Source: Bacteroidales bacterium (GTDB lineage Bacteria; Bacteroidota; Bacteroidia; Bacteroidales; WCHB1-69). From it: DNA of 64,000 nt. Made by a program: the position numbers and the translations under genes. Within the stretch, counting starts at the first letter, position 1. The number at the start of each line of letters is the position of its first letter. Where the stretch lies: NCBI GenBank assembly GCA_017994425.1, contig JAGOKS010000001.1:1294-65293 (forward strand), read 5' to 3'. Shown piece by piece: positions 39,592 to 50,124 of the stretch. The notes beneath the pieces were generated by a model. That model worked only from the letters and a program-made list of their open reading frames with translations, was not told where the DNA came from and searched no databases.

Positions 39592-39723
39592 CAGAAGAAA
39601 AAAGTGGATAGATTTGATTTGATTGCAACCACTCAAAAATGCTAAAACAACGACATTTTCCATCAATCATTAGAATCCATTCCTTTTAAAAATTAGTTAT
39701 TTAACAATTAAAATTTTTAAAAT

Positions 39724-43074: not shown

Positions 43075-44856
43075 ATGGAAATTACAAGGACATTCGATTT
43101 TCTTGAACAATTAAAAGAAAAATATGCGCATAAAACAGATATTTTAGCGCAAAAAAAGAATGGAGTATGGAAAAAAATAAGTGTCGACGAATATTATGAA
43201 AAGGCACATCTGCTTAGTTACGGCTTTTTAGCTTTGGGATTGCAACCACAAGATAAAGTGGTTACGGTTACTAACAATCGTCCCGAATGGAATTTTATTG
43301 ATATGGCCTTGGGAATGGCAAATTTAGTCCATGTGCCGGTATATCCTACCTTAGGAATTGAAGATTACAAATACATCATCCATCATAGCGATGCCAAGCT
43401 TGTTATTATAGGAAATGAAATTATTTTTAATGTAGTATATCCCGCTATTCAAGCCCTGGAAGTTAAACCGATTGTCTATACCGTGAATCCCATCGAAAAT
43501 CAAAAACATTTAGATGATATTAGCTTGTTGGGATTAAACACAAAAAACATCTATAACAAAACAATAGAGGAAAACAAAAAGAACATCAAACCTGAAGATT
43601 TATGTACCATTATTTATACCTCGGGCACTACCGGCACTCCCAAAGGAGTTATGCTGTCACATCGCGCCATCACTTTTAATGCAATGGCACATGGCAATAT
43701 GCAAATTGTTGACCACCGCCACAGGATGTTAAGTTTTCTCCCGCTTTGCCATATTTACGAACGTAGCATGAACTATTCTTTTCAATACCTTGGCGTTAGC
43801 ATTTATTATGCGGAAAGTCTAAGCACCATCGGTGCCGACTTGAAAGATGGCAATGTAAACGGATTCTGTTCCGTTCCCCGTGTATTGGAAATGACCTTTG
43901 AAAAGTTCCGTTCTGCAGGCAAAGACCTGAAAGGAATGAAAAAGAAAATCTACTTTTGGGCTTTTAATGCCGGACAGATTTTCGACAATAACAATAAATC
44001 ACCTTTCTATAGATTGAAATATTTCATTGCCGATAAATTGATATACAGCAAATGGAGAGAGAATTTAGGAGGCAACGAATTATTGATAGTCTCGGGAGGC
44101 TCTTCCATACAACCTAAGATAGTCAGACTTTTTACCGCAGCAAAAATGAAAGTAGTGGAAGGCTACGGATTGACCGAAACCTCTCCCGTTATTGCCGTTA
44201 ACAGACCCAAAGACAATCTCGTTCTCATCGGCTCTGTCGGGAAACTTATCGATGGTATCGAAGTGAAACTTGCCGATGACGGTGAAATCTTAACCAAAGG
44301 AGTATGCCTGATGATGGGCTATTACAAAGACCCTGCATATACCCAAGAAGTCATAGACGAAGAAGGCTGGTTCCATACCGGTGATATCGGCGAATTTACC
44401 AAAGACGGCTACCTCCGCATTACCGATCGTAAAAAAGATATTTTCAAATTATCGTCCGGAAAATACATTTCCCCACAGCTATTAGAAAATAAAATTAAAG
44501 AATCGCCATTTATCGAAAATGTCATGATAATCGGTGAAAACCAAAAATTTGTTTCTGCTTTGATATCTCCGAATTTCAATTATTTGCATTTCTGGGGAAG
44601 CAAACATAAACTTCATTATCGCGATAATGACGAATTGGTTGAAAATCCTCTGACAGTACAACGCATTAAAAAAGAAATCGACCAGATTAACGAGAAATTA
44701 GCCCCTCACGAACAAGTAAAACGCTTCCGCGTTGTGCACGAAGAATGGGGAAGCGCTACCGGCGAACTCTCCCCTACCTTGAAATTGAAAAGAAATGCCA
44801 TGCTGAAAAAATACGAAGCTACCATTGCCGAAATATTCGGCTCCTATTTCGATTAA
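43075..44856 (+). CDS. Long-chain fatty acid--CoA ligase (AMP-binding), paralog 2
   Basis: 593 aa. Colinear with paralog 1 from MEITRTF to the C-terminus, with the same AMP-binding motifs. Confidence 0.85.
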   Translation: MEITRTFDFLEQLKEKYAHKTDILAQKKNGVWKKISVDEYYEKAHLLSYGFLALGLQPQDKVVTVTNNRPEWNFIDMALGMANLVHVPVYPTLGIEDYKYIIHHSDAKLVIIGNEIIFNVVYPAIQALEVKPIVYTVNPIENQKHLDDISLLGLNTKNIYNKTIEENKKNIKPEDLCTIIYTSGTTGTPKGVMLSHRAITFNAMAHGNMQIVDHRHRMLSFLPLCHIYERSMNYSFQYLGVSIYYAESLSTIGADLKDGNVNGFCSVPRVLEMTFEKFRSAGKDLKGMKKKIYFWAFNAGQIFDNNNKSPFYRLKYFIADKLIYSKWRENLGGNELLIVSGGSSIQPKIVRLFTAAKMKVVEGYGLTETSPVIAVNRPKDNLVLIGSVGKLIDGIEVKLADDGEILTKGVCLMMGYYKDPAYTQEVIDEEGWFHTGDIGEFTKDGYLRITDRKKDIFKLSSGKYISPQLLENKIKESPFIENVMIIGENQKFVSALISPNFNYLHFWGSKHKLHYRDNDELVENPLTVQRIKKEIDQINEKLAPHEQVKRFRVVHEEWGSATGELSPTLKLKRNAMLKKYEATIAEIFGSYFD

Positions 44857-44889
44857 TACAGAAACTGATTTCGTGCCGAAAAAAGAATT

Positions 44890-44917
44890 GTAGAGACATA
44901 GAATGCTATGTCTCTAC
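44890..44917 (+). terminator. Perfect 12-bp hairpin after the second ligase gene (weak T-tract)
   Basis: gtagagacatag-aatg-ctatgtctctac. Confidence 0.4.
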
Positions 44918-44929
44918 GTTATTCCAATA

Positions 44930-45577
44930 ATTACTGTTTTGAAAGCAACAAAAAATATTAATAAAAGGATGTTTTTTGTTATCGTACGTTGTAAAAAGAA
45001 TAATACATAGTTATGCTCCAGTGATTAGATGCTTATCTGTTATTGTTAGGGTGCCCACCTTAGTCCGATTTGCCAGCTATGTAATGCTTCTTGGAAAGCC
45101 ATCAAATGAACCTAAGGAGCGCTCCCTAACACCGAAGGATGCTTATCAAATGATTGGACGATGCCTTTGCGTTTATCGTTTACTAACTGTGTAAATCAAA
45201 TTTCACGGCTTTACGCTCAGAAACTACTGAATTTAGTTGAACTATAATGATTCATGATTCATAATTTCTCTCGTGATTTACTTTTTACTTTTACCTTGTC
45301 CCTTTCCCCTTGGTTAGCGAGTTTGTTGCAAGTATTTCCCACCTTCATTAAAACGCCGTGCCTGTCTTTTTCATAGGAGATTGGGGAGTAGTTGCAAGGA
45401 GCTCCCATGCTCGTTGAAACGAGATTGCAATCTCATTTGAAAGAGTAAGGCAGGCCGTTTTAACGGACTTGGGACGTCCGGCGTACGACCTTGGGAACTC
45501 ATAAATGAGGCTATTACTATTGTTATCATTTATGTTTTTTTTTCAATGAAACAAATAAAAGTATATTTTTGCAAAAA
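44930..45577. other. ORF-poor, GC-richer, hairpin-dense spacer of unknown nature (candidate structured RNA and/or decayed recombination modules)
   Basis: Only one ORF of at least 60 aa, with non-protein-like composition. Nested stems 45045-45051/45124-45130 and 45058-45063/45112-45117, and local hairpins at 45410-45423, 45421-45434 and 45455-45466. Degenerate copies of the tggggag..ttgcaag module occur at 45382-45398 and near 45326. Confidence 0.35.
45564..45571 (+). promoter_or_regulatory. -7 box TAnnTTTG (tatttttg), copy 0 of the repeated promoter module
   Basis: gtatatttttgcaaaaacc resembles the two downstream promoter modules. It abuts the first 34-bp element. Confidence 0.4.
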
Positions 45578-45611
45578 CCACCCCTCTAAATCTCCCCAAG
45601 TGGGGAGACTT
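45578..45611 (-). repeat. 34-bp element, copy 1 (ccacccctctaaatctccccaagtggggagactt), inverted relative to the cassette copy
   Basis: 33/34 identical to the reverse complement of 49791-49824. It contains the palindrome tctcccca-ag-tggggaga. Confidence 0.85.
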
Positions 45612-45671
45612 GCAAGTGCAAGAGAGTTACAACAAACATTCATTTTTTTGTAAACCGATATAATTTATTTG

Positions 45672-45679
45672 TATTTTTG
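45672..45679 (+). promoter_or_regulatory. -7 box TAnnTTTG (tatttttg) driving the truncated stub ORF
   Basis: 22 nt upstream of the ATG at 45701. Confidence 0.5.
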
Positions 45680-45700
45680 CAAAACCAAATCATATAAAAA

Positions 45701-45820
45701 ATGAACCAAAGCTACAAGGCAATAAACTATCAATACGCTGTGGGGCAAAGTCTCCCCATTACCCACCCCTCTAAATCTCCCCAAATGGGGAGACTTGCGA
45801 AGGCGAGAGGGTTACATTAA
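45701..45820 (+). pseudogene. Truncated Rhs-tip cassette head (39 codons)
   Basis: MNQSYKAINYQYAVGQSLPI matches the cassette heads up to the left palindrome arm. It then reads through the inverted 34-bp element to a stop. Confidence 0.55.
45763..45796 (-). repeat. 34-bp element, copy 2 (ccacccctctaaatctccccaaatggggagactt)
   Basis: 34/34 identical to the reverse complement of 49791-49824. Confidence 0.9.
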
Positions 45821-45856
45821 ACAAGCATTTTTTCGTAAACCGATATAATTAATTTG

Positions 45857-45864
45857 TACCTTTG
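45857..45864 (+). promoter_or_regulatory. -7 box TAnnTTTG (tacctttg) for the first full toxin cassette
   Basis: 22 nt upstream of the ATG at 45886. Confidence 0.55.
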
Positions 45865-45885
45865 CATATCGAAATCATATAAAAA

Positions 45886-46719
45886 ATGAACCAAACCTAC
45901 AAGGCAACACTCTCACAACACGCACTACCGCAGTTCCTCCCCATTTATTCGTGGGGCTGTTTGAATTTTACATTAAGGTACTCATGCTTTCCGCTTCGCT
46001 CCAAGTGGGGAGGGAAGGGAGGGGTGATTTGGGGAGATTTAGAGGAGTGGAGCCTTAAAACTATGATGTTTGAGAAATATCCTTCCATTTCACCGTATAC
46101 CTATTGTGCAAATAATCCGATTCTTTTAGTAGATGATGATGGTCAAGAAATAAGAATTTATTATAAAGAAAAAACAGGTATTGCAAGGTTGTTTGAAAAG
46201 CCAAAATCAATAGTTTATACACCTGGAATGGTATATAGTGGAGGAAATAATTTTGTGAATAATGCCGTAAAAGCATTAAATTATGTAAAACAAGGGGATC
46301 AATTAGGGATTATAGAAAAAATTGCAAAAAATAATAAATTAATAAAAATAAAAGAAACTAAAGGTAATACTTTATATAATCCTTTTTCAAATACGGTAAG
46401 ATTTAATACAAAATTAGGACTGGCTTGTGTTGATGAAAATTTAGATGAAACAGGTGGAAAACAATCACCTGCGTTAGGTTTATTACATGAACTTGGTCAT
46501 GGATTTGTTGATATTTTTAAATCAATGAGTGAGAAATTATTTTTGTTAGGAACAGATGACCAATATGATAATAAAGAAGACGAATTTGTAATAACTCAAA
46601 TTGAAACACCAGCAGCAAAGATATTGGGGGAAGGAATAAGAGAAAATCATGATGGGAATGATTTTATAGCTAAAGATGTTAATTCAAAAGAAGAAATAAA
46701 TTCAAAAGAAAAGGAATAA
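45886..46719 (+). CDS. Rhs-tip polymorphic toxin cassette B: HExxH zincin-like metallopeptidase toxin domain
   Basis: The head ends in FEKYPSISPYTYCANNPILLVDDDGQE, the Bacteroidota Rhs core terminus pattern. The variable C-terminal part contains LLHELGHGF. The head carries a 28-aa insertion relative to cassette E. Confidence 0.75.
   Translation: MNQTYKATLSQHALPQFLPIYSWGCLNFTLRYSCFPLRSKWGGKGGVIWGDLEEWSLKTMMFEKYPSISPYTYCANNPILLVDDDGQEIRIYYKEKTGIARLFEKPKSIVYTPGMVYSGGNNFVNNAVKALNYVKQGDQLGIIEKIAKNNKLIKIKETKGNTLYNPFSNTVRFNTKLGLACVDENLDETGGKQSPALGLLHELGHGFVDIFKSMSEKLFLLGTDDQYDNKEDEFVITQIETPAAKILGEGIRENHDGNDFIAKDVNSKEEINSKEKE
46030..46119 (+). repeat. Conserved cassette-head homology block (partial) in cassette B
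   Basis: tggggagatttagaggagtgg...atgatgtttgagaaatatccttccatttcaccgtatacctattgtgcaaataatccg is shared with C, D and E. Confidence 0.8.
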
Positions 46720-46724
46720 TAAAG

Positions 46725-47213
46725 ATGAAAATTTTATTTTTAATTTTATATATGATGATTTCTTATTTGTCATTTTCACAATCAGATACTATAAATAATT
46801 TAATTAATAAGGTTTTATTTGATGAAAATGTCAAAATAAAAATAACATACAAAAAAACAACAATACCAAATTCAATAAAAAAAGAATTAAAAAATAAATA
46901 TGGCGTTTTTAGAATTGCAAATCCAAATATAAAGTATCAGCAAAACGATGTTATTAGATTTCCATGGCAATTACCAGATAATCAAATGTTATTTCTTATT
47001 AATAAAGGAAATTATTATGCTTTTATTTTTATTCATGGAGGTAGAGGAAAATCAATAAATTTTATTTTTTGTGAATTAGATAGAAACAAAAAAATTAGAA
47101 ATATTGATTATTTCTATATGCTATATAAAGTAAAAAGCATAGATGATTTTTTTTATGCAATAAAAAATGAAAAATATAAAAAAAATAAAATGATGTATGG
47201 TAACATAGAATAG
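46725..47213 (+). CDS. Putative immunity protein for cassette B (exported)
   Basis: 162 aa. It starts 5 nt after the toxin stop and has a signal peptide (MKILFLILYMMISYLSFSQS). Confidence 0.6.
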   Translation: MKILFLILYMMISYLSFSQSDTINNLINKVLFDENVKIKITYKKTTIPNSIKKELKNKYGVFRIANPNIKYQQNDVIRFPWQLPDNQMLFLINKGNYYAFIFIHGGRGKSINFIFCELDRNKKIRNIDYFYMLYKVKSIDDFFYAIKNEKYKKNKMMYGNIE

Positions 47214-47320
47214 TGGAAAATGTACCATCGGGTCCTTTATGTGGTAGTGTGCCATTTTAGGTATTTTCAAAAAATGAAAAATATAGTACAGAAATTCAAA
47301 GAGATAAGAAAAAGTAGAGA

Positions 47321-47527
47321 GAAAAACAAGGCTAAAGCAAAGCGATGAAGGATTATGTAGTTAATAATTTCAAGGCAATAAACTATCAATACGCTGTGGG
47401 GCAACTCTCCACTTACATTGATTTAGAGGGGTGTAGCCTTGAAACTATGATGTTTGAGAAATATCCTTCCATTTCACCCTATACCTATTGTGCTAATAAT
47501 CCGATGAAGTATGTAGACCCGACGGGG
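47321..47527 (+). repeat. Conserved cassette-head homology block, cassette C
   Basis: It runs from gaaaaacaaggctaaagcaaagcgATG through ..gtagacccgacgggg and includes ~24 nt of non-coding leader. Confidence 0.8.
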
Positions 47528-48139
47528 GAGGAAGGAGAAGATAGTGAATCATGGATTAAACGTAAGGATGGAACTTATGTTTTTGACAGTAGAGTGATAA
47601 CTCAAAAAGATGCAGAAAAATATTATGGAAAAGATGCTGAAGCAATTGCAGACGGGTACTATATTCAAACAACAAAGGGAGAGGTAATATTCTTAGACAA
47701 TGGGGTATACATGTTAAATGATAAAAAATATCAAGTAAAGGATCAAGCAAAAGGAATAGCTAAAGTAGTGGCTGAAATCAGAAATTTTGATGCTTCATTA
47801 GAAGGGCATAATGATGGTGATAATAGCGGCGACCCTTGGTTACAAAAAAATGTGGCTCCGGTATTAGAAGGATTGGCATTATTAAATCCACTTATTGGTA
47901 TTGCCAATGGCGTATATACAGCCGCTGCAGGTGAAGATATTTATGGAAATGAAGCCAGCACTGCAAATAGGATAATTTCAGGAGTGGGTGTGATTGCAGG
48001 AGGAGTGAGTAATGTTGCCAAAGGAACGGTGTCTACAGTTTCAAAAGGAATTGACAAAGCTATTGATGCTTGGACAGTGTATCAAACAATAAAAGCAGGG
48101 TATAAAAAACAAAATAATAATGAAAACAAGAAAAAATAA
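47345..48139 (+). CDS. Rhs-tip polymorphic toxin cassette C: Gly/Ala-rich C-terminal module (pre-toxin-TG-like or membrane-active)
   Basis: Head MKDYVVNNFKAINYQYAVGQ...FEKYPSISPYTYCANNPMKYVDPTGE. The tail reads LLNPLIGIANGVYTAAAGEDIYGNEASTANRIISGVGVIAGGVS. Confidence 0.7.
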   Translation: MKDYVVNNFKAINYQYAVGQLSTYIDLEGCSLETMMFEKYPSISPYTYCANNPMKYVDPTGEEGEDSESWIKRKDGTYVFDSRVITQKDAEKYYGKDAEAIADGYYIQTTKGEVIFLDNGVYMLNDKKYQVKDQAKGIAKVVAEIRNFDASLEGHNDGDNSGDPWLQKNVAPVLEGLALLNPLIGIANGVYTAAAGEDIYGNEASTANRIISGVGVIAGGVSNVAKGTVSTVSKGIDKAIDAWTVYQTIKAGYKKQNNNENKKK

Positions 48140-48383
48140 AGCCATTCTTTTCTCTTGTGGTTTTTTTGGCATTCTGGGATTTATTACTCTTTCGTCAAAG
48201 TTTCTTAATATTTTTAAAATGGGACCTTCCAGTTGGGAAGAAATAGGTCAATATTTACCTTTATCAATTATTTGTTCTTTGGTATTTGCAGCATGGGTAA
48301 CATGGGGTGGAGTTGGCGATAGTTTAATAAAGTTCTTTGCAAATCGCCGTAAAAATAAAAAAAAGGATAATAATGGGAAGTGA
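48120..48383 (+). CDS. Putative membrane immunity protein for cassette C
   Basis: 87 aa. It overlaps the toxin 3' end by 20 nt and has two hydrophobic segments (AILFSCGFFGILGFITL; LPLSIICSLVFAAWVTWGGV). Confidence 0.55.
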   Translation: MKTRKNKAILFSCGFFGILGFITLSSKFLNIFKMGPSSWEEIGQYLPLSIICSLVFAAWVTWGGVGDSLIKFFANRRKNKKKDNNGK

Positions 48384-48400
48384 TAAATTCTATGGATAAA

Positions 48401-48610
48401 AGAAAAAAACAAGACTAAACCAAAGCGATGAAAAATTATATAGTCAATAATTTCAAGGCAATAAACTCGCAATACACTGTGGGGCAACTCTCTATTGGTA
48501 TTGATTTAGAGGGGTGCAGCCTTAAAGCTATGATGTTTGAGAAATATCCTTCCATTTCACCGTATACCTATTGTGCGAATAATCCGGTAATGTTTGTTGA
48601 CCCGACGGGG
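48401..48610 (+). repeat. Conserved cassette-head homology block, cassette D
   Basis: Same block as in C and E, with scattered substitutions. Confidence 0.8.
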
Positions 48611-49207
48611 AAAGAGTGGGATTTAAGTGGTTTGACCGAATCTCAAAAGAAAACATGGGAATCAACAATGGCGTTTGCCTGTAAGTATAGTAAGTCATTC
48701 AATAAGATGTATAATCAATTGAACAAGTCTTCAACAGTCTATAAAGTAGCTGTTGATACAAAAATAAATACCAAAGGGGAATTTAATGCTAAGAATAACA
48801 CAGTTGCATTTAATTCTGAAGAATCAATAAAACAAGGAGACGTATATATTGAAGAATTATTTCATGCTTATCAAAAGGATAATGCTGATTTATATGAAAG
48901 TGGCAAAAGTTTTAATAAAGAATTTGAGGCAAAAGTTGCAAAACTTATTATAAAGAGTGAAATGGGTTCACCAATTATGAATTTTAAAAATACTAATATG
49001 GAAGGAATGGCTAATTATTTATTTGATAACGAAACGTATAAATTTTGTTTTCCGGATGAATTAGAAAGTAAAGAATTTAATGATAAATATATGAAAGAGG
49101 CAGAAAATTTTAAAAAATGGAATATTGAAAATAATTATGGAGATTCTCATTACAGAACTTTAACAAATCAATCGCCGAAATCATTATTAAAATTATTTGG
49201 AAAATGA
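48428..49207 (+). CDS. Rhs-tip polymorphic toxin cassette D: paralog of the cassette B toxin fold with EELFH in place of HELGH
   Basis: Head ..FEKYPSISPYTYCANNPVMFVDPTGKE. The body shares TKG..(Y/F)N...NTVxFN with cassette B, then reads YIEELFHAYQ. Confidence 0.7.
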   Translation: MKNYIVNNFKAINSQYTVGQLSIGIDLEGCSLKAMMFEKYPSISPYTYCANNPVMFVDPTGKEWDLSGLTESQKKTWESTMAFACKYSKSFNKMYNQLNKSSTVYKVAVDTKINTKGEFNAKNNTVAFNSEESIKQGDVYIEELFHAYQKDNADLYESGKSFNKEFEAKVAKLIIKSEMGSPIMNFKNTNMEGMANYLFDNETYKFCFPDELESKEFNDKYMKEAENFKKWNIENNYGDSHYRTLTNQSPKSLLKLFGK

Positions 49208-49650
49208 AAAAAACAGTAATTATAATAGGACTTACAATCTGTGTATTTTATAGTAATCATGTGTCAACTCAAAACGACATTGGTTATAAATTAGGTTGTT
49301 TAAATTATTATACAAATAATGTTTTTGAGAAATTATTATCTATTATAGACACAACTACAAGAAAAAATTTAATTGAGAAAAGGGATTGTCCTTTTAATAT
49401 TCATATAATGTTGGATACTGTAACAGGGTATCCTATTGAAATTAATATTAAAGATAATTGCAGTATTTTGTCAGAAAAACAAAAGGAGAAGTTTAAAGAA
49501 ATTTTATTTAAAACCCAATTTGATTTTTGTCATGAAGAGCATGATGTTCCTGATAAGCTTGCCAAAAGTCTTTCTCCAGGTTCATTTGGTTTTTTAACAG
49601 GGAGTTTTAGTACTTGGTGGAATATAAAAGTATTATATGAAGAGAAATAG
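49204..49650 (+). CDS. Putative immunity protein for cassette D (exported)
   Basis: 148 aa. Its ATG overlaps the toxin stop (ATGA), and it has a signal peptide (MKKTVIIIGLTICVFYSNHVSTQ). Confidence 0.6.
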   Translation: MKKTVIIIGLTICVFYSNHVSTQNDIGYKLGCLNYYTNNVFEKLLSIIDTTTRKNLIEKRDCPFNIHIMLDTVTGYPIEINIKDNCSILSEKQKEKFKEILFKTQFDFCHEEHDVPDKLAKSLSPGSFGFLTGSFSTWWNIKVLYEEK

Positions 49651-49705
49651 GTAGTGTATCAAGTTAGGGCATAGAAAAATAAAGAATTAAAAGACAAAAG
49701 AATAA

Positions 49706-49914
49706 GAAAAAAACAAGGCTAAAGCAAAGCGATGAAGGATTATGTAGCTAATAATTTCAAGGCAACATACTCGCAATATGCTATGGAGCAAAGTCTCCCC
49801 ATTTGGGGAGATTTAGAGGGGTGGAGCAGAGAAACGATGTTTGAAAAATATCCTTCCATTTCACCGTATACTTATTGTGCGAATAATCCGATGAAGTTTG
49901 TAGACCCAACGGGG
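49706..49914 (+). repeat. Conserved cassette-head homology block, cassette E
   Basis: Same block; it contains the intact palindrome. Confidence 0.8.
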
Positions 49915-50124
49915 GAAGATTGGTATGAAGCCGAAGATGGAAAGGTTACATGGACAGATTGTACAAACAAAAAAGATTTTACAGCATCTGGTATAAAAGG
50001 AACATATTTAGGAAAAACACATAAAGCAGATGGAAAATATTACAGTCTGTTTGGGCAAACAATGAATGCCAATTCAAAACAACTCAAAATCAAAAAAAAA
50101 TTGATGTATTGGAGTATGAAATAA
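49732..50124 (+). CDS. Rhs-tip cassette E: short (130 aa) variable tail, no cognate immunity ORF
   Basis: Head MKDYVANNFKATYSQYAMEQSLPIWGDLEGWS..FEKYPSISPYTYCANNPMKFVDPTGE, with only ~65 aa of variable tail. The next gene is convergent rlmN. Confidence 0.6.
   Translation: MKDYVANNFKATYSQYAMEQSLPIWGDLEGWSRETMFEKYPSISPYTYCANNPMKFVDPTGEDWYEAEDGKVTWTDCTNKKDFTASGIKGTYLGKTHKADGKYYSLFGQTMNANSKQLKIKKKLMYWSMK
49791..49824 (+). repeat. 34-bp element in coding orientation (aagtctccccatttggggagatttagaggggtgg)
   Basis: It encodes SLPIWGDLEGW and contains the palindrome tctcccca-tt-tggggaga. Confidence 0.9.

Follow-up and report, generated by a model that had tools for sequence, protein, structure and literature searches.

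A conserved non-coding module built from 22-bp units heads an orphan Rhs toxin-cassette array in uncultured Bacteroidales

In this study, we analyzed the spacer at positions 44930-45577 of a 64,000-nucleotide stretch of Bacteroidales DNA (the window), located between the second of two AMP-binding ligase genes and an array of orphan Rhs C-terminal toxin cassettes. The spacer is real and no artefact, and together with a few bases to its left it is a previously undescribed conserved non-coding module, in the following called the head, of a small family of toxin-cassette arrays from uncultured Bacteroidales. The head is one module of about 650 bp, composed of two blocks of 22-bp units, an A+T-rich linker, a hairpin followed by a T-run, and an outward-facing −33/−7 promoter. 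The number of units changes in whole 22-bp steps, and a palindrome is kept in one to three phased copies. Judged from these features of the DNA, chances are about even that the spacer represents the non-coding head of a horizontally mobile toxin/immunity array and serves as a control region that is bound by a protein at the DNA level. A reading as structured RNA is not supported. A literature search for the motifs of the head found none.

Orphan toxin/immunity arrays shape bacterial warfare, and the switching, movement, and growth of such arrays are known only where a recombinase heads them, as in integrons and in the recombinase-associated acquired interbacterial defence (rAID-1) arrays. Here, a conserved, repeat-built non-coding head holds the position of the recombinase and accompanies homologous cassettes elsewhere. 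If the 22-bp units bind a regulator, the head would serve as control region for a toxin arsenal; with a recombinase as their partner, it would be a new kind of cassette platform. Under either reading, the palindrome GAGATTGCAATCTC offers a concrete bait for the protein.

For homologue finding, a search with the leader peptide of the cassettes, the contigs of the matches, one metagenome scan with an invariant 20-mer, and, in the case of locus L100, an FKBP protein were used. L001 is a contig of the same species, L088 and L089 are two strains, and L100 is a relative of these two, its FKBP gene being 90.6% identical in DNA to theirs. Positions 44922 (approximately) to 45575 of the window align with 2030-2660 of L100 at 83% identity, although L100 is a different chromosomal locus in another genome. 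There, the head adjoins a gene for an FKBP-type isomerase and is followed by TATTTTTG, the leader MNQTYKATLSQ, and an Rhs C-terminal toxin cassette. The 3′ part of about 240 bp (window 45336-45576), which contains block B, recurs in L087, L088, and L089, adding two more locus types, one of which is an array head. The L087 copy lies between a MeaB-family gene and a promoter repeat with the first cassette. L088 and L089 are 97% identical over 701 nt from the end of the FKBP gene through the element and unrelated immediately beyond it, where a TATATTTG promoter and a lipoprotein-like frame rich in A+T follow in L089. The head thus stands at the boundary between core and island at three chromosomal loci, beside ligase, FKBP-type isomerase, and MeaB-family genes. 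Conservation beyond this strain and beside rhs-type cassettes, which an earlier sequence-only reading of the spacer had suggested to check, is given over the full head in L100 and over the 3′ ~240 bp in L087. No further copies beyond those in L001, L087-L089, and L100 were found among 101 loci with a profile hidden Markov model, and viral contigs, plasmids, and phages gave no match to the head. A first metagenome 20-mer, GGCAGGCCGTTTTAACGGAC, had no match because its last two bases are specific to the window, and a conserved 20-mer was present in only 2 of 241 million metagenome records.

The coordinates of the parts of the head and of adjoining features are listed in Table 1. Each unit of block B consists of a GAG-N8-CTC core and a GTTGAAAC-like spacer; their number is seven in both the window and L089 and nine in both L087 and L100. 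The lag-22 autocorrelation of this block reaches z values of 5.7 (window), 5.3 (L089), 8.4 (L087), and 10.6 (L100); in the window, it lies 4.3 standard deviations above the mean of the 64-kb window. For L100, Tandem Repeats Finder reported a period of 22 with 4.1 copies. Two large indels distinguish L100 from the window; they measure exactly 66 and 44 nt, and at the site of the 66-nt segment L100 carries a perfect palindrome of 20 bp, GTTAAGGAGCGCTCCTTAAC. The same lattice appears in the spacing of shorter repeats, with copies of cttggga 22 nt apart, copies of a 31-nt repeat (45325/45391) 66 nt apart, and block A repeats spaced 110 nt (45028/45138) and 44 nt (45101/45145). TTGCAA-like hexamers recur about every 11 bp, and 22 bp correspond to two helical turns. 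As in an iteron- or operator-type array, we thus find a constant period of 22 in four homologues, indels of two and three units, and an invariant core palindrome. A sequence kinship of blocks A and B was also considered and rejected, as local alignment was no better than with shuffled sequences; by eye, some units seem alike. The one other site in the window with an equal lag-22 match fraction (0.46-0.50), at 2621-2700, is A+T-rich, lies at the junction of two open reading frames (ORFs), and has no sequence similarity to the head.

Table 1. Parts of the head and adjoining features, in window coordinates (a dot marks features without strand)
Feature	Position	Strand	Remarks
SAM-II riboswitch (RF01726)	39598-39655		upstream of metK; 61 bits, gathering score 44
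Perfect 12-bp hairpin after second ligase gene	44890-44917	.	left boundary of head
Whole non-coding head module	44922-45577	+	83% identity to L100 2030-2660; no ORF signal, no Pfam or Rfam match
Block A, degenerate array of 22-bp period	45020-45175	.	lag-22 z = 4.8, lag-44 z = 3.2
66-nt (3 × 22) segment	45047-45112	.	in window and L001, missing from L100; inner part of 5′ hairpin
A+T-rich linker with 7-nt micro-repeats	45176-45354	.	~80% conserved in L100
Block B, seven contiguous degenerate 22-bp units, GC-rich hairpin-dense core	45355-45508	.	
Perfect 14-bp palindrome GAGATTGCAATCTC, candidate protein-binding core	45421-45434	.	at least one perfect copy in every homologue
A+T-rich hairpin (CATAAATGA / TCATTTATG) followed by T9	45500-45543	+	terminator-like
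Bacteroidota-type −7 box TATTTTTG	45564-45571	+	sole TAnnTTTG in 44930-45577 on either strand
Two 183-nt promoter-plus-leader repeats	45578-45760, 45763-45945	+	bounded by 22-24-nt inverted repeats

The palindrome GAGATTGCAATCTC is present once in the window, L088, and L089, three times in perfect form and in 22-bp phase in L087, and in two perfect copies plus one with a single mismatch in L100, where the spacers have diverged; it occurs neither elsewhere in the window nor in 94 other loci (~1.3 Mb). Over their 42 nt, the three L087 copies match exactly, whereas their 8-nt spacers differ at 3-5 of 8 positions, a pattern indicative of selection acting on the palindrome. For the pair of window and L087, divergence is 10% in block B and 28% at four-fold sites of a housekeeping gene, so that block B is about 2.8 times less diverged. 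The parts that are clearly kept are the palindrome, GGAGCTCC, and the promoter, and much of the rest may drift.

The spacer also has a history of its own. The ligase genes of L001 and the window differ at 1 of 3690 positions, without any synonymous difference, whereas the 415 nt after the stop codon (44857-45271) contain 11 mismatches, starting at 44918. Because divergence jumps past the ligase stop codon, the history of the spacer differs from that of the abutting gene, and the ligase terminator hairpin marks a sharp boundary of recombination or transfer. The left edge of the head (~44922), where homology to L100 starts, coincides with the start of the L001 divergence. L001 parts completely from the window at 45272, where its contig ends.

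At the 3′ end of the head, the arms 45500-45508 and 45526-45534 form a hairpin followed by the T-run at 45535-45543. From its sequence, this element looks like an insulating terminator with a T-run that doubles as −33 region; a terminator scan missed it owing to the low number of G-C pairs in the stem. L089 and L100 have equivalent hairpins in which stem bases are changed, and L087 has a different strong hairpin at this place. Of three promoters that face the array in tandem, the TATTTTTG promoter comes first (next −7 boxes at 45672 and 45857), and its box is conserved in L100, L089, and L087.

In the control-region reading, which we favor, the phased palindromic units would be recognized by a dimeric DNA-binding protein whose gene lies elsewhere. 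This protein would bind cooperatively along one face of the helix and would control the head promoter and hence expression of the toxin/immunity array, and the hairpin plus T-run would shield the array from read-through of the upstream housekeeping operon. Several observations weigh against this proposal. None of the copies of the head has a gene for a candidate binding protein or a recombinase nearby, and no regulator, replication, or partition gene lies beside any of the loci. The palindromes are located 130-290 bp upstream of the promoter, with the terminator-like hairpin in between, which is far for a simple repressor. The distinct homologues number only four for block B and two for block A (L001 and L100). 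For the pair L088/L100, divergence is ~20% in block B and 24% at four-fold sites, and identity between the window and L100 is fairly even along the whole head (75-92%); this near-neutral divergence together with the even identity means that most of the module may be unconstrained. The 83% identity between the window and L100 may reflect transfer or constraint, as the DNA compared contains no shared orthologues by which to gauge the distance of the hosts. Finally, the plus strand folds better than the minus strand in two of four homologues, which is unexpected for a purely DNA-level role.

Even identity and near-neutral block B divergence are what a decayed minisatellite-like tract would show that is carried with the array by descent or transfer and of which only the last ~80 bp, comprising hairpin, T-run, and promoter, are active. 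Such a tract is a possible, yet on balance unlikely, explanation. It would account for the free gain and loss of units seen in the 44- and 66-nt indels, for the dispensable block A, which is missing from L087, L088, and L089, and for the promoter 24-mer AAATAAAAGTATATTTTTGCAAAA, which drives a cassette within the L084 array with no other part of the head beside it. It does not sit well with at least one perfect palindrome in every homologue and several within an array despite decaying spacers, with the reduced divergence of block B between the window and L087, or with retention of the module at three chromosomal loci. Rather improbable, in our estimate, is a role in recombination or transposition, in which the repeats would bind a recombinase or transposase encoded elsewhere, like attI or the multi-site end of a Tn7-like element, and the head would mark the left end of a mobile island and the site of cassette capture and shuffling. 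Stated in full, which makes it no more probable, the head would then be the cis-acting assembly site of an integron- or transposon-like system with its enzyme elsewhere, moving the array between loci and capturing or reshuffling cassettes at its 3′ edge; if true, this would be a recombinase-less counterpart of rAID-1 arrays and integrons in uncultured Bacteroidales. Tn7 ends, for comparison, typically have contiguous binding sites of 22 bp. The head always divides core genes from variable low-GC cargo, at all three loci, L088 and L089 are nearly identical up to its 3′ end and unrelated past it, the strain-level divergence jumps exactly at its left edge, and the promoter units of the array are flanked by 22-24-nt inverted repeats. 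Against such a role, no recombinase or transposase was found in the window or in any related locus. Among the Pfam-scanned ORFs from ~20 kb upstream through the 3′ end of the window, recombinase, transposase, and regulator genes are all missing, and no integrase was detected by Pfam in 30 flanking ORFs and six-frame pieces of the spacer, where the sole integrase-like match was a chance-level lambda integrase Arm DNA-binding domain (Arm-DNA-bind_1, E = 0.18). Direct repeats joining both ends of the island, a matching right end, and a target duplication were not found either. Kinship of the head units with the cassette junction site was rejected, since the profile of the 22-bp unit does not score junction sites. 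A more distant array (L092/L093) carries a different head and no copy of that in the window, and all promoter units were seen in one orientation only. The putative bound protein may act in transcription control or in recombination, and three facts, namely the boundary position, the L088/L089 split, and the inverted repeats, favor keeping the recombination reading.

The sequence-only reading had set the two halves of the spacer apart, explaining the 3′ half in part as a possible remnant of earlier rearrangement junctions and suggesting a structured RNA for the 5′ half. This division fails, as both halves belong to one module that is present end-to-end in L100. Hairpin density is indeed beyond chance: the plus strand of 45300-45500, with an imperfect inverted repeat of 66 nt (45337-45402/45409-45474), has a predicted fold of −76.4 kcal/mol (z = −4.99; matched by none of 200 shuffles), compared to z = −2.41 for its minus strand, and 45000-45220 reaches z = −2.86 on the plus and −0.83 on the minus strand. 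Plus-strand folds of the homologues are similarly strong (z = −4.7 in L089, −6.6 in L087, and −6.4 in L100). These values, the better folding of the plus strand in the window and L089, the terminator-like hairpin kept with different stem bases, and one compensated pair in the outer 10-bp inverted repeat of block A (45010/45187, G-C to A-U) would suit a structured plus-strand small RNA (sRNA) of ~200-550 nt ending at the hairpin plus T9, which we consider very unlikely. For the pairing test, minimum-energy structures of the window were projected onto the homologues. L100 breaks 16 of the 21 changed pairs of the long block B hairpin because its right arm was replaced without compensation, and L087 and L089 keep about half of the changed pairs, which is near the unconstrained expectation. 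In block A, 26 inner pairs fall within the 66-nt indel and are missing from L100, so that the 5′ hairpin 45045-45130, proposed earlier as an RNA structure, is largely a lineage-specific insertion of three units. A covariation check, which had been suggested together with that proposal, gave no support, as RNAalifold found compensation in 1 of 53 pairs, with +0.13 as covariation term (low power, with 3-4 distinct sequences). L087 and L100 show no strand asymmetry in folding, and a TAnnTTTG box upstream of the putative RNA is present in none of the homologues. As already noted from the sequence, there is no match to the RNA families named in the earlier reading: Rfam searches of the spacer were empty at the gathering threshold and at E ≤ 10, with best scores in the region of 14-23 bits against thresholds of 37-200 bits (E > 1), Rfam gave no match on L087 and L089, and a tRNA/tmRNA scan found nothing in the spacer. 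The stability of the folds is explained by the palindromic repeat units, and the predicted hairpins are thus, as far as these comparisons go, a by-product of these units rather than RNA structure under selection. Very good folding z-scores can, as here, stem from palindromic tandem DNA repeats instead of an RNA gene.

A degenerate small protein gene on the minus strand is extremely improbable. It would be suggested by an ORF of 104 aa that a gene caller placed across block B of L100 (2302-2616, minus strand) and by partial minus-strand open frames in the window (52 and 57 aa), L089 (85 aa), and also L087. However, the L100 ORF joins two frames that are distinct in the window, and the candidate was rejected as substitutions are not in excess at third positions (5, 11, and 13 for codon positions 1, 2, and 3). 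Substitution counts in the other reading frames are flat, without codon periodicity, the 44-nt indel shifts frames, and the 66-nt indel shifts or interrupts them among the homologues. A pseudogene test with six-frame pieces against Pfam and tblastx against all loci gave no match, and no similar protein was found for a concatenated six-frame peptide among 5.8 billion proteins.

Several known systems can be compared with the control region proposed here. The rAID-1 arrays of Bacteroidales, whose layout was called integron-like (Ross et al. 2019, bioRxiv 10.1101/471110; PMC12247911), are defined by a gene for a XerD-like tyrosine recombinase at the 5′ end (bioRxiv 10.1101/471110; PMC12247911). 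The array in the window likewise has co-oriented, short, low-GC toxin-remnant and immunity genes with repetitive intergenic sequences, as well as a conserved non-coding stretch between head and first gene. Unlike rAID-1, an ORF-free head of 22-bp repeats takes the position of the recombinase gene and the motif downstream of that gene, with no recombinase beside L087, L088, or L100, and the cassettes retain the end of the Rhs core, the toxin domain, and a private leader. With the integron platform (intI, attI, Pc), the array has in common a conserved head, an outward promoter, and co-oriented, promoter-poor, variable cassettes. The direct repeats of attI provide several protein-binding repeats beside the insertion end, as proposed for the head. 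However, an integrase gene and any sequence similarity to integrons are lacking, the cassettes are divided by homologous leader repeats of ~215 bp and not by attC-type imperfect palindromes, and several cassettes have their own promoter unit.

Operator and iteron arrays offer a further comparison. R6K and pPS10 have 22-bp iterons, phage 434 has three 14-bp operators, and parC repeats are located upstream of parMR. The head resembles these in its period of about two turns, its 14-bp palindromic cores in one to three phased copies, its position upstream of a promoter, and its copy changes in whole units. It differs from them in that no initiator, repressor, or partition gene is adjacent, in that it is chromosomal and single-copy and heads a toxin array, and in that binding is putative. 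In Enterobacteria, orphan rhs-CT/immunity arrays consist of tandem modules downstream of full-length rhs genes and are not known to carry a dedicated non-coding head. As in these arrays, a shared core-end sequence (here FEKYPSISPYTYCANNP) is able to recombine; unlike them, no full-length rhs gene is present in the 64 kb, and the cassettes have their own start and leader. Imperfect hairpins of ~190 nt with strong z-scores are reminiscent of 6S RNA-type sRNAs and of hairpins of miniature inverted-repeat transposable elements (MITEs) or repetitive extragenic palindromic (REP) elements, from which the head is set apart by the missing Rfam match, the lack of conserved pairing, and its single-copy state. 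The many copies typical of MITE or REP elements were not found, with one copy in the window and none in 94 other loci (~1.3 Mb).

Most of what had been read from the letters of the spacer proved correct. There is no credible ORF in 44930-45577, the only one of at least 60 aa being 44976-45194 (72 aa, TTG start). The description as GC-richer is true relative to the cassette array (37.0% against 30.6% G+C) and does not apply relative to the two ligase genes (37.6%); the whole window has 34.2%, and only 45291-45500 is distinctly GC-rich (48.6%). The complementary segments gttaggg/ccctaac (45045-45051/45124-45130) and ccttag/ctaagg (45058-45063/45112-45117), as well as ctcgttgaaacgag (45410-45423), gagattgcaatctc (45421-45434), ccgttttaacgg (45455-45466), and ggacgtcc (45472-45479), were placed accurately, and so was the direct repeat cttggga (45468 and 45490). 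The direct repeat gatgcttatc is real, but starts at 45028 and 45138, one base off the positions given. The idea of decayed repeats was right in spirit, as the direct repeats listed are spaced 22 and 110 nt, multiples of the 22-bp period. The likeness of tggggag-NN-ttgcaag to the junction module downstream is, in contrast, specific to the window, since the homologues read TGGGGAC, TGTGGAT, and TGTGAAC there.

The gene order before the spacer is SAM-II riboswitch, metK, the two AMP-binding ligase genes, of which the second ends at 44856, and the 12-bp hairpin. It is followed by the two promoter-plus-leader repeats, four cassettes, and the convergent genes rlmN and gcvT. The closest species-level relatives of the second AMP-ligase come from metagenome-assembled genomes of digesters and sediments (78-83% amino-acid identity), and the species of the window is present in digester samples (JGI 3300010353, ENA ERZ28615402, ERR4678575). 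Across 80 species genomes, synteny analysis found the order metK-ligase-ligase kept in L002-L004, with unrelated DNA downstream and without the spacer. The ORF-free DNA past the ligase genes in L003 (5930-6710) consists of 5S rRNA and the 3′ end of 23S rRNA on the opposite strand; this rRNA-operon DNA is unrelated to the spacer. Each of the four cassettes opens with the common leader and the Rhs core-end motif FEKYPSISPYTYCANNP and has its own start codon, small immunity-like genes follow two of them, and no main rhs gene is present in the window. The array (45886-50124) contains a 215-nt repeat in three copies.

The inverted repeats bounding the promoter units belong to the cassette junction site (46027-46050). 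These brackets, CCACCCCTCTAAATCTCCCCAA(AT) and TTGGGGAGATTTAGAGG(A/G)GTGG, are 95-96% complementary, and bracketed units were seen in the window (45578-46050), L090 (58-345), L094 (~1055-1290), and L084 (2676-2900 and 8350-8580). In L084, L090, and L094, the promoter unit is located immediately after a ATGAAGGAT cassette start. By its arrangement, the unit looks like an invertible or transposable promoter cassette. All units in the window, L084, L087, L090, and L094 share one orientation, and an invertase gene was not found.

Further observations concern the surroundings of the head and of related arrays. In the hairpin at 44890-44917, the T-run (AATTCTTTTTT) belongs to the minus-strand side, and the plus strand carries an A-run upstream; this hairpin would stop leftward transcription from the head at least as well as rightward transcription of the ligase operon. 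The DNA upstream of the head copies (L087 8900-9450; L089 230-272; L100 1700-1760) contains many short dispersed repeats, e.g. AATCAATTAAAAATTAAGAATTAAAAATTAA and CAAGGCTCTAAAATA, and small elements of hairpin plus T-run that are common to unrelated loci. The lipoprotein-like frame past the element in L089 (~846-1396) is open over ~180 codons, with a lipoprotein-like signal (LFTGC) and without ATG, GTG, or TTG before codon ~118, and may represent either a pseudogene or an immunity-type gene that starts unusually. A more distant array lies downstream of a gene for a peptidase M13 in L092/L093 (9191-10000), and its first cassette keeps the last Rhs repeat (NAKELDEENGMYYYSARYY). Its own head comprises 810 nt free of ORFs with two direct repeats of ~85 nt and TCCCCAAGTGGGGA-type palindromes, without detectable similarity to the head in the window. 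ORF-free, repeat-rich heads may be a general feature of such arrays.

The first cassette and its immunity gene (window 46150-47503) recur with 99.2% identity in L082 (1-1354), which is derived from other samples. In these samples (L082; also L084, L090, and L091), the two genes end in a cassette cut off directly behind YCANNP, which adjoins Zip-Era-deaminase genes and not cas2...rlmN. The toxin array, or a copy of it, therefore sits at another locus or has recombined. At the Zip-Era-deaminase locus, the L084 array comprises at least 13 genes.

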